A stretch of 18,332 bases of DNA. Origin: Acidobacteriota bacterium. Lineage in GTDB: Bacteria; Acidobacteriota; Terriglobia; Terriglobales; Acidobacteriaceae. The notes beneath the pieces were generated by a model, which did no database searches, was not told where the DNA came from, and saw nothing but the letters and a program-made list of their open reading frames with translations. The position numbers and the translations under genes are program-made. Numbering within the stretch: the first letter of the stretch is position 1; every line of letters starts with the position of its first letter. This document shows positions 9,259 through 9,372 of this stretch, one piece after another. The stretch is taken from positions 1-18,332 of the forward strand of contig JAEZPW010000356.1 in the NCBI GenBank assembly GCA_023441255.1, written 5' to 3'.

Positions 9259-9278
9259 CTTGGATCTCCCAGGCCGAA

Positions 9279-9306
9279 ATGATAGCACACATATTCGCCT
9301 TGACAA
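9279..9306 (-). promoter_or_regulatory. candidate arsR-acr3-arsC promoter
   Basis: On the minus strand: TTGTCA (9306-9301), a 16-nt spacer, then TATCAT (9284-9279). The spacer contains CATATTCGC (9290-9298). The predicted TSS is about 14 nt upstream of the arsR ATG region, giving a short leader that carries the SD. Confidence 0.45.
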
Positions 9307-9358
9307 ATATATCCAGCTCGGCCTATAGTTCTCTCCATCATATTCGCATACGCGAATA
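9290..9358. promoter_or_regulatory. operator-like repeats (probable ArsR binding sites)
   Basis: CATATTCGC is directly repeated at 9290-9298 and 9339-9347. A perfect 7-bp inverted repeat, TATTCGC-ATAC-GCGAATA, lies at 9341-9358, just downstream of the plus-strand -10. An imperfect palindrome, ATATTCGCcttgACAAATAT, spans both -35 hexamers at 9291-9310. Confidence 0.5.
9300..9329 (+). promoter_or_regulatory. candidate promoter of the orf60-hgcA-hgcB operon
   Basis: TTGACA (9300-9305), an 18-nt spacer, then TATAGT (9324-9329). Its -35 hexamer overlaps the opposite-strand -35 (shared TGACA). The region is locally AT-rich (about 42% GC over 9301-9360). Confidence 0.5.
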
Positions 9359-9372
9359 CAAGGAGAACGGAG

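Follow-up and report, generated by a model that had tools for sequence, protein, structure and literature searches.

Both the control of hgcAB expression and the native purpose of HgcAB are open questions in mercury biogeochemistry. One of the closest described systems is that of Pseudodesulfovibrio mercurii ND132, where the ArsR-family regulator ArsR2 is encoded beside hgcAB, and where hgcAB transcription is arsenic-responsive and co-regulated with the ars operons (Gionfriddo et al., bioRxiv 10.1101/2022.10.17.512643; AEM 2023). Furthermore, bins from metagenomes have been found to carry arsR-like, acr3 and arsC genes next to hgcA (McDaniel et al. 2020, PMC7438021, Fig. 6; Peterson et al. 2025, PMC11984097, Fig. 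4c), and the presence of arsR accompanies lower hgcA/gyrB transcript ratios in lake metatranscriptomes (PMC7438021, PMC11984097). The operator described in E. coli MG1655 is the ArsR binding site (ABS) ACACATTCGTTAAGTCATATATGTTTTTGACT (supplement of PMC9134189); in 3,340 E. coli genomes this site was located 47–79 nt upstream of arsR. In engineered reporters, leakiness is lowered by a second ArsR site placed downstream of the promoter (PMC3918153, PMC9134189, PMC5116461); PMC3918153 credits Stocker et al. 2003 with an auxiliary ArsR site after Pars. Here, an 18,332-nt stretch of DNA from an Acidobacteriota bacterium of the Acidobacteriaceae (contig JAEZPW010000356.1), called the window at its full length, was analysed, in which an arsenic resistance operon, arsR-acr3-arsC, and an operon including the predicted mercury methylation genes, orf60-hgcA-hgcB, diverge from a 114-bp gap at 9259–9372. 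We consider it likely that this gap serves as a compact promoter in both directions under the control of the ArsR encoded beside it, and that As(III) would de-repress both arsR-acr3-arsC and orf60-hgcAB.

The genes of the two operons, with window positions, are the following:

7321–7743, minus strand: arsC, thioredoxin-type arsenate reductase of the LMWPc fold (Pfam LMWPc, 72 bits), last gene of the minus-strand operon
7752–8843, minus strand: acr3, arsenite efflux permease (NCBIfam TIGR00832, ACR3 equivalog, 466 bits, cut-off 283; supported by the gene calls of identical contigs)
8845–9258, minus strand: arsR, 137-aa ArsR/SmtB repressor with C33-V-C35 and C111-C112 (Pfam HTH_5, NCBIfam)
9373–9555, plus strand: orf60, at the head of the plus-strand operon; its product has two vicinal Cys pairs (GFCCGIR...MPTPSSCCGVRV)
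9597–10637, plus strand: hgcA, corrinoid protein (NCBIfam NF040863, 416 bits, cut-off 275)
10651–10926, plus strand: hgcB, 2x[4Fe-4S] ferredoxin (NCBIfam NF040864, 102 bits, cut-off 99)

The divergence of the two operons from the 114-bp gap, as given in a preliminary description of this DNA, was borne out by the gene calls. ArsR scored 49.8 bits against Pfam HTH_5 (cut-off 22) and 84.6 bits against the ArsR/SmtB model NCBIfam NF033788 (cut-off 55), and the best NCBIfam match of arsC was arsC_pI258_fam with 154 bits, under the equivalog cut-off of 174. The ars genes are separated by 1 nt and 8 nt, the acr3 start at 8843 lying 1 nt beyond the arsR stop. A longer open reading frame (ORF) on the minus strand, which spans the gap (8840–9292), gave no family match and was rejected in favour of arsR at 8845–9258. 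On the plus strand, the ATG at 9597 was taken as the start of hgcA, replacing the TTG at 9534 of the long ORF. The translation of hgcA contains the cap-helix motif NVWCAAGK at residues 104–111 and a hydrophobic C-terminal half, and that of hgcB contains both CMECGAC and the C-terminal CVSCDCG; thus, by family models and motifs, the predicted products match the HgcAB mercury methylation pair. No intrinsic terminator was found 3′ of orf60 or 3′ of hgcB. DNA identical to the window occurs on three public metagenome contigs. The nearest named relatives of ArsR and Acr3 are from metagenome-assembled genomes (MAGs) of Terriglobales, while those of HgcA are from Bryobacterales/Bryobacteraceae (66%) and from an "Acidobacteria bacterium" MAG (61%).

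Between the arsR and orf60 start codons the following elements were located:

9265–9270, minus strand: probable Shine-Dalgarno (SD) sequence of arsR, GGGAGA, 6 nt ahead of the ATG, as read from the sequence
9279–9284, minus strand: −10 hexamer TATCAT of the arsR promoter, from the promoter scan; ATCATA/ATAATA is kept in the related loci L084, L089 and L132
9291–9310, no strand assigned: predicted ArsR box 1, imperfect 8-4-8 dyad ATATTCGC-CTTG-ACAAATAT, 2 mismatches to the consensus
9300–9305 TTGACA (plus strand) and 9306–9301 TTGTCA (minus strand): −35 hexamers, covered by box 1
9324–9329, plus strand: −10 hexamer TATAGT of the orf60-hgcAB promoter, from the promoter scan; conservation 0.89
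9340–9359, no strand assigned: predicted ArsR box 2, ATATTCGC-ATAC-GCGAATAC, 1 mismatch to the consensus, holding the perfect palindrome 9341–9358
9360–9365, plus strand: SD sequence AAGGAG of orf60, kept in relatives

The gap had been called AT-rich, which is right in comparison with the window, but only moderately so (GC 0.465 vs 0.58). The promoter scan predicted two sigma-70-like promoters, a plus-strand promoter, TTGACA(9300)-18-TATAGT(9329), with 11 of 12 consensus matches, and a minus-strand promoter, TTGTCA(9306)-16-TATCAT(9279), with 10 of 12, whereas shuffles of the region contained 0.4 ± 0.6. The two back-to-back promoters are where they had been described before; their −35 hexamers overlap by 5 nt, and both lie within box 1. 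The direct repeat CATATTCGC occurs at 9290–9298 and 9339–9347. The location of the first copy agrees with the preliminary description; however, it is not a lone half-site in the arsR promoter spacer, but the left half of the full dyad 9291–9310. The second copy runs into the perfect 7-4-7 palindrome TATTCGC-ATAC-GCGAATA at 9341–9358, which was confirmed to lie between the plus-strand −10 and the orf60 SD, so that box 2 stands 3′ of this −10 and abuts the SD. Both boxes were described by one 8-4-8 pattern, ATATTCGC-N4-GCGAATAT, with 16 scored positions; an example half-site substitution for box mutants is the exchange of ATATTCGC for ATATTAAC. Allowing up to 3 mismatches, the pattern matched only boxes 1 and 2 in the 18.3-kb window, where 0.05 matches were expected, and none of 200 shuffles gave two or more. 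As far as these predictions go, the gap holds a pair of divergent promoters, and core elements of each are overlapped by a putative operator. We also considered, and rejected, a third box left as a remnant at the −10 of the window, the ancestral position of box 2, as 10 of the 16 positions are mismatched by eye.

The pattern was then followed in a reference set of 80 orthologous loci (L004–L083; one genome per species, almost all Acidobacteriaceae or Terriglobales), whose ArsR is 60–76% identical to that of the window. At up to 3 mismatches, 77 matches were found among the 10,480 positions within 150 bp upstream of arsR versus 7 among the 626,272 positions elsewhere in the 80 loci, which is an approximately 600-fold enrichment. 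At up to 5 mismatches, nearly every locus (79/80) has the box and 66/80 have a pair of boxes, spaced by 33 bp in 53 cases and by 34 bp in nine. In the alignment of these loci, box 1 bears the −35 (TTGACG) of the promoter pointing away from arsR and, owing to the 33–34 bp spacing, box 2 covers its −10 (TATAGT/TATATT). In the clade of the window, box 2 no longer falls on the −10 but lies immediately 3′ of it, and the spacing is 43–52 bp (49 bp centre-to-centre in the window). These observations support the two dyads as a conserved operator of the ArsR clade to which the window belongs. Most reference loci also have a TATAAG/TATAAT-like −10 only 7–9 nt from the arsR ATG, with a TTGCCA −35 between the boxes, suggesting that their arsR mRNA is leaderless. 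Outside this set, locus L134 encodes a distant 133-aa ArsR of the ELCVCDI type, the promoter of which carries a single box copy fused to TTGACA (1290–1330), so the box appears to be used beyond the Acidobacteriaceae clade.

The cassette of the window is not unique. Besides the window, at least seven related metagenome lineages (HgcA 68–85% identical), which came from several projects (JGI, ENA, Logan assemblies), carry it in front of hgcAB, and the same control region was detected in front of other genes. Metagenomes also supplied the closest relatives of ArsR and HgcA. The related loci, with percent identities to the proteins of the window, are listed below:

L132 (ArsR 85%, HgcA 84%): acr3 following arsR, divergent from orf60-hgcAB; box 1 identical, box 2 with one central change, spacing 49 bp
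L137 (HgcA 72%): arsR, acr3 and arsC, divergent from orf60-hgcAB; box 1 identical, spacing 48 bp
L131 (HgcA 85%): contig end carrying the cassette and orf60-hgcAB
L130 (HgcA 83%): both boxes, −10 and SD ahead of orf60-hgcAB; no arsR
L101, L092–L094 and L118 (HgcA 74–76%): arsR directly divergent from hgcA, without orf60
L089 (ArsR 84%, HgcA 76%): gene of the phosphoenolpyruvate (PEP) mutase family, then hgcAB
L135 and L136 (HgcA 68%): 75-aa PEP-mutase fragment, then hgcAB
L084 (ArsR 82%): RACo/AcsV-like corrinoid activase on the divergent arm
L086–L088: PEP mutase and EamA transporter on the divergent arm
L133: orf60 homologue and a 102-aa gene on the divergent arm

The 20-mer of box 1 is identical in L131, L132, L133 and L137, and the divergent shared-promoter layout is kept in L084, L086, L101, L132, L133 and L137. 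Conservation, expressed as the fraction of the commonest base per column in nine cassettes with different downstream genes, was 0.85–0.94 in the half-sites (0.90–0.94 in box 1, 0.85–0.90 in box 2) and 0.89 in the plus-strand −10, but only 0.46–0.64 in the spacers between elements. In the middle of box 2, the 4 nt between its half-sites (0.64) read ATAC, ATTA, ATGC, TTAT, ATAG, ACTA or CGTG, depending on the locus. Half-sites that are kept around a varying centre are the pattern expected for the operator of a dimeric helix-turn-helix protein. More distant hgcA genes (HgcA at most 67% identical, L095–L129) had no arsR upstream.

The same alignments bear on the explanation that box 2 acts mainly at the RNA level, as a hairpin in the 5′-untranslated region near the SD, which would modulate how stable the orf60-hgcAB message is or how well it is translated, with no part played by ArsR. 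The folding energy of the RNA of 9334–9385 is −12.4 kcal/mol (z = −4.3); the palindrome forms a stem of 7 bp in it, and a possible outer pairing, UCCAUC/GAUGGA (9334–9339 with 9372–9377), would cover the SD and the start codon of orf60. Nevertheless, RNAalifold on seven relatives retained the palindrome only, with a covariation term of +0.25, which gives no support, and the changes break pairs instead of compensating for each other. Moreover, the half-site sequence itself is kept and equals that of box 1 and of the boxes of 79 other loci, box 2 of the reference loci overlaps the −10 and would not be transcribed, the outer stem lies partly upstream of the predicted transcription start site, and box 1 would be left unexplained. 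The outer stem masking the orf60 start seemed suggestive by eye, as L130–L132 have comparable complementary pairs of differing sequence, and this candidate was dropped as absent from the alifold consensus. We regard a mainly RNA-level role of box 2 as highly unlikely and keep to the reading of both dyads as ArsR operators.

It could also be supposed that ArsR autoregulates arsR-acr3-arsC only, that the plus-strand promoter is constitutive or under another factor, and that the shared gap is a mere matter of compact packing. Autoregulation of arsR is suggested by box 1 in its promoter, and hgcA has long been regarded in the literature as constitutively expressed. However, box 1 also contains the plus-strand −35, and box 2 precedes the predicted arsR start by about 80 bp, yet stands directly between the plus-strand −10 and SD. 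In L130, homology to the other cassettes begins only about 6 nt before box 1; arsR and its −10 are gone, while both boxes have been retained ahead of orf60-hgcAB; that the cassette was kept here although arsR is no longer adjacent supports ArsR control of the plus arm. L134 likewise has, in addition to its arsR promoter, a separate two-box cassette (3900–3970) ahead of an orf60 homologue and arsI, 2.7 kb from any arsR. Control confined to the ars arm thus seems scarcely probable to us, and regulation of both arms by ArsR remains the preferred reading. The coupling of ArsR to the boxes is supported from another side by L093, where arsR looks damaged and both boxes are more degenerate than in L101, which is consistent with a joint decay of repressor and operator. 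In this locus (3570–4000; also in L092, L094 and L118) the arsR start codon is changed from CAT to CGT, as read on the opposite strand, the ORF is 101 aa and no acr3 follows. A further irregularity was noticed in L130 (4900–6270), where orf60 is apparently frameshifted and called as a 422-aa fusion with hgcA, either by an assembly error or as a real fusion.

Comparison with E. coli related the dyads to an operator that had been defined by experiment. For the core of the ABS, the imperfect dyad ACATTCGT-TAAG-TCATATAT, a single register agrees with the 8-4-8 pattern, with 5 of 16 mismatches as opposed to at least 9 in all others, and this core is identical to the Acidobacteriaceae box-1 consensus at 17 of 20 positions and to box 1 of the window at 14 of 20. 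The ArsR of the window is 38% identical to that of E. coli, its C33-V-C35 aligns with C32-V-C34, and the recognition helices are near-identical (QP(K/T)ISRHLA(L/Y)LR; one version is QPKISRHLALLR). Consequently, the proposal that the adjacent ArsR binds the dyads rests on more than geometry, namely on the shared register, the aligned CVC and the recognition helix. The relatives of the window ArsR in the PDB include SmtB, CadC and ArsR-family entries; against the E. coli-type model PRK10141 it scored 74.9 bits, below the cut-off of 97, hence it appears to be a relative of this subfamily and not a member. In an alignment of 41 clade relatives, C33 and C35 are invariant and C111 is near-invariant; C111/C112 are candidates for further As(III) ligands. 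Taken together, the protein is a canonical-looking repressor of the As(III) type.

The site of the third ligand leaves room for the explanation that ArsR binds as proposed, but its inducer is something other than inorganic arsenite, such as methylarsenite (MAs(III)), Sb(III), Hg(II)/MeHg or a thiol-reactive metabolite, in which case hgcAB would not be simply arsenite-inducible. The sensor differs from that of R773 and E. coli ArsR in having another residue in place of Cys37 and a Cys111-Cys112 pair at the C-terminus, and ArsRs using a C-terminal vicinal Cys pair can be selective for MAs(III). Because of this different third ligand, we take a different effector as the most serious of the rival variants. 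In ND132, ArsR2 responded also to treatments related to S-adenosylhomocysteine (Gionfriddo et al.), while hgcA was not induced by Hg according to the published data. On the other hand, the invariant C33-V-C35 aligns with the residues through which E. coli ArsR binds As(III), and the operon under this ArsR encodes Acr3 and ArsC, which handle inorganic arsenic. An inducer other than arsenite therefore seems rather unlikely, though deserving attention, and As(III) is retained as the probable effector.

From the gene identities, the positions, conservation and enrichment of the sites and their likeness to the E. coli operator we infer the following course of regulation. Without metalloid, ArsR dimers would sit on both 8-4-8 dyads. 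Since box 1 lies on the overlapping −35 hexamers, its occupation would occlude both of them and hinder RNA polymerase at both promoters, and box 2, at roughly +4 to +23 of the predicted transcript, would add an extra block specific to the orf60-hgcA-hgcB arm. Binding of As(III) to Cys33/Cys35, and probably also to Cys111/112, would free ArsR and allow both operons to be transcribed. The extra box would make the hgcAB arm tighter than the autoregulated ars arm, as in the engineered reporters. As there are two conserved boxes in the shared gap, hgcAB is probably switched on by arsenite and would then belong to the arsenic regulon in the lineage of the window. The earlier inference that one ArsR co-regulates the ars genes and hgcAB thus stood in all its computationally testable parts, and the layout recurs in several lineages.

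Several points weigh against this course of events. The case for the DNA and the protein of the window is built from sequence, and both promoters are predicted as consensus matches only. The 49-bp spacing does not correspond to integral helical turns and differs from the 33–34 bp of most relatives, thus cooperative binding is not implied. The third As(III) ligand is unlike that of E. coli ArsR, as there is no Cys37 but a C-terminal Cys111-Cys112 pair, so the effector could be another thiophilic species, and the palindrome of box 2 would also form an RNA hairpin. Finally, hgcAB transcription was decoupled from methylation rates in ND132 (Gionfriddo et al., bioRxiv 10.1101/2022.10.17.512643), and higher hgcAB transcription need not raise methylmercury (Gionfriddo et al.).

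The reference loci also indicate from where the cassette may have come. ArsM-like genes diverge from arsR in 73 of the 80 loci, as determined by tblastn with two verified examples (286 and 301 bits versus the NCBIfam arsenite methyltransferase model NF008823, cut-off 263), and they are usually followed by an arsC-like gene. This suggests arsC2←arsM←(box 2)(box 1)→arsR→acr3 as the ancestral layout. The cassette of the window thus reads as a modified form of an arsM/arsR bidirectional control region that is ancestral in Acidobacteriaceae, the divergent arm now carrying other genes, and in this lineage the predicted corrinoid methyltransferase pair, usually behind orf60, holds the position of an arsenite methyltransferase dependent on S-adenosylmethionine (SAM). 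The arsM gene itself seems to have moved within the regulon at least once, since in L004 (2511–4881, plus strand), which has the most similar reference ArsR (76%), the order is arsR-arsM-acr3-arsC with arsM on the same strand, downstream of arsR. Other genes on the divergent arm of relatives were noted as well. In L084 (1933–4818, minus strand) the RACo/AcsV-like corrinoid reductive activase scored 352 bits, below the curated cut-off, and is accompanied by 228-aa and 98-aa proteins without a family. A gene of the PEP-mutase/isocitrate-lyase family heads the arm in several relatives (L089, 1698–2555, minus strand; L086, 3942–4766, minus strand; L135, 3754–3981, plus strand), and the one in L089 overlaps hgcA by ATGA.

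In the window, the first gene of this arm is orf60, which has no Pfam or NCBIfam family match. An exhaustive HMMER search revealed 16 homologous cluster representatives of 51–63 aa, which share the motif G(F/P/Y)CCGIR...MPTPSSCCGVR(V/L/F/M). In the window, L130–L134 and L137, the gene that comes first after box 2 and the SD of a two-box ArsR promoter is invariably orf60, while the gene after it is hgcAB in the window, L130–L132 and L137, the 102-aa gene in L133 and an ArsI/CadI-family gene in L134 (147.7 bits vs a cut-off of 116). Consequently, orf60 appears to be a real, conserved and unannotated small-protein gene linked to ars genes, and its two vicinal Cys pairs suggest binding of soft metals or metalloids. 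The idea that orf60 is a remnant of the PEP-mutase gene preceding hgcA in L089 was rejected, because tblastn of both PEP-mutase proteins found nothing in the window (best E value 0.67) and orf60 has its own family of 16 representatives. A more far-reaching proposal gives HgcAB a native function related to arsenic under anoxic conditions, in which orf60 might take part as a thiol-based carrier of metalloids, and to which mercury methylation is a side reaction; a candidate for this function is the corrinoid-dependent methylation or another transformation of As(III), replacing the SAM-dependent ArsM. This would fit the corrinoid-activation genes in the same slot (L084) and the orf60 homologues beside the ArsI/CadI gene (L134); we offer it as a speculative and, for the present, improbable proposal.

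The rest of the window has no evident link to these findings. A hybrid histidine kinase with PAS, HisKA, HATPase and receiver domains (11102–12874, minus strand) converges on hgcB, and the region upstream of the ars operon (1–6446) encodes an S41 peptidase, to which the gene calls of an identical contig add MagC and a large alpha-2-macroglobulin.

So far, the experimental link between ArsR and hgcAB is known from one Desulfovibrionaceae strain, whose ArsR is atypical and has no ars genes as neighbours. The window would be a second, independent and mechanistically explicit case, which offers a canonical-looking repressor, a defined operator akin to the E. coli site, a promoter shared with acr3/arsC and a conserved family of loci. 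If the proposal is true, arsenite-dependent hgcAB transcription is predicted in the Acidobacteriota of the window, and the positional swap of arsM for hgcAB turns a vague connection between mercury methylation and arsenic into a testable hypothesis. The novelty had been overstated in the preliminary description, since arsR, acr3 and arsC next to hgcA as well as ArsR-linked repression of hgcA were already published. What we regard as new is the putative shared-operator architecture and the arsM slot, as distinct from the known ArsR-hgcAB link and the co-location of ars genes and hgcAB. No description of the operator sequence, the bidirectional shared-operator architecture, the descent from an arsM/arsR region or the orf60 family was found in the literature searched, most subscription journals being outside the search.

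Compared with the known systems, the window shares with ND132, for which the earlier statement of ArsR-like control of hgcAB agrees with the literature (Gionfriddo et al.), an ArsR/SmtB-family regulator adjoining hgcAB. However, arsR2 lies on the same strand upstream of hgcAB, is co-transcribed with it and has no adjacent ars genes, whereas arsR of the window is on the opposite strand and heads arsR-acr3-arsC, so the divergent geometry does differ from a co-transcribed arsR-hgcAB, as had been pointed out. By its description ArsR2 is also set apart in its Cys sites (C47/49/86/88 vs C33/35 and C111/112). The reports of McDaniel et al. and Peterson et al. stay at the level of gene neighbourhoods, to which the window adds the predicted operator, the promoter geometry and the positional equivalence with arsM. 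The arsM/arsR loci of Acidobacteriaceae (L004–L083) share the ArsR clade and the box with the window, and their promoter, also bidirectional, has box 1 on the divergent-arm −35 (TTGAC), but their boxes are 33–34 bp apart, box 2 is on the −10 and arsR is apparently leaderless, while the boxes of the window are spaced by 49 bp, the second of them is past the −10 and the arm carries orf60-hgcAB. Engineered arsenic bioreporters resemble box 2 of the window in having an auxiliary operator after the promoter and before the regulated gene; those constructs are synthetic, whereas the arrangement in the window is natural and conserved. The chromosomal and R773 ArsR-ABS-Pars systems of E. coli have, like the window, a winged-helix ArsR with CVC in helix α3, the same dyad register and an operator touching the −35. 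In E. coli, however, one site serves one promoter from which arsR is co-transcribed with arsBC, while the window has two putative sites, its two promoters diverge from −35s that overlap, the third Cys ligand is at a different place and the regulated partner would be hgcAB.

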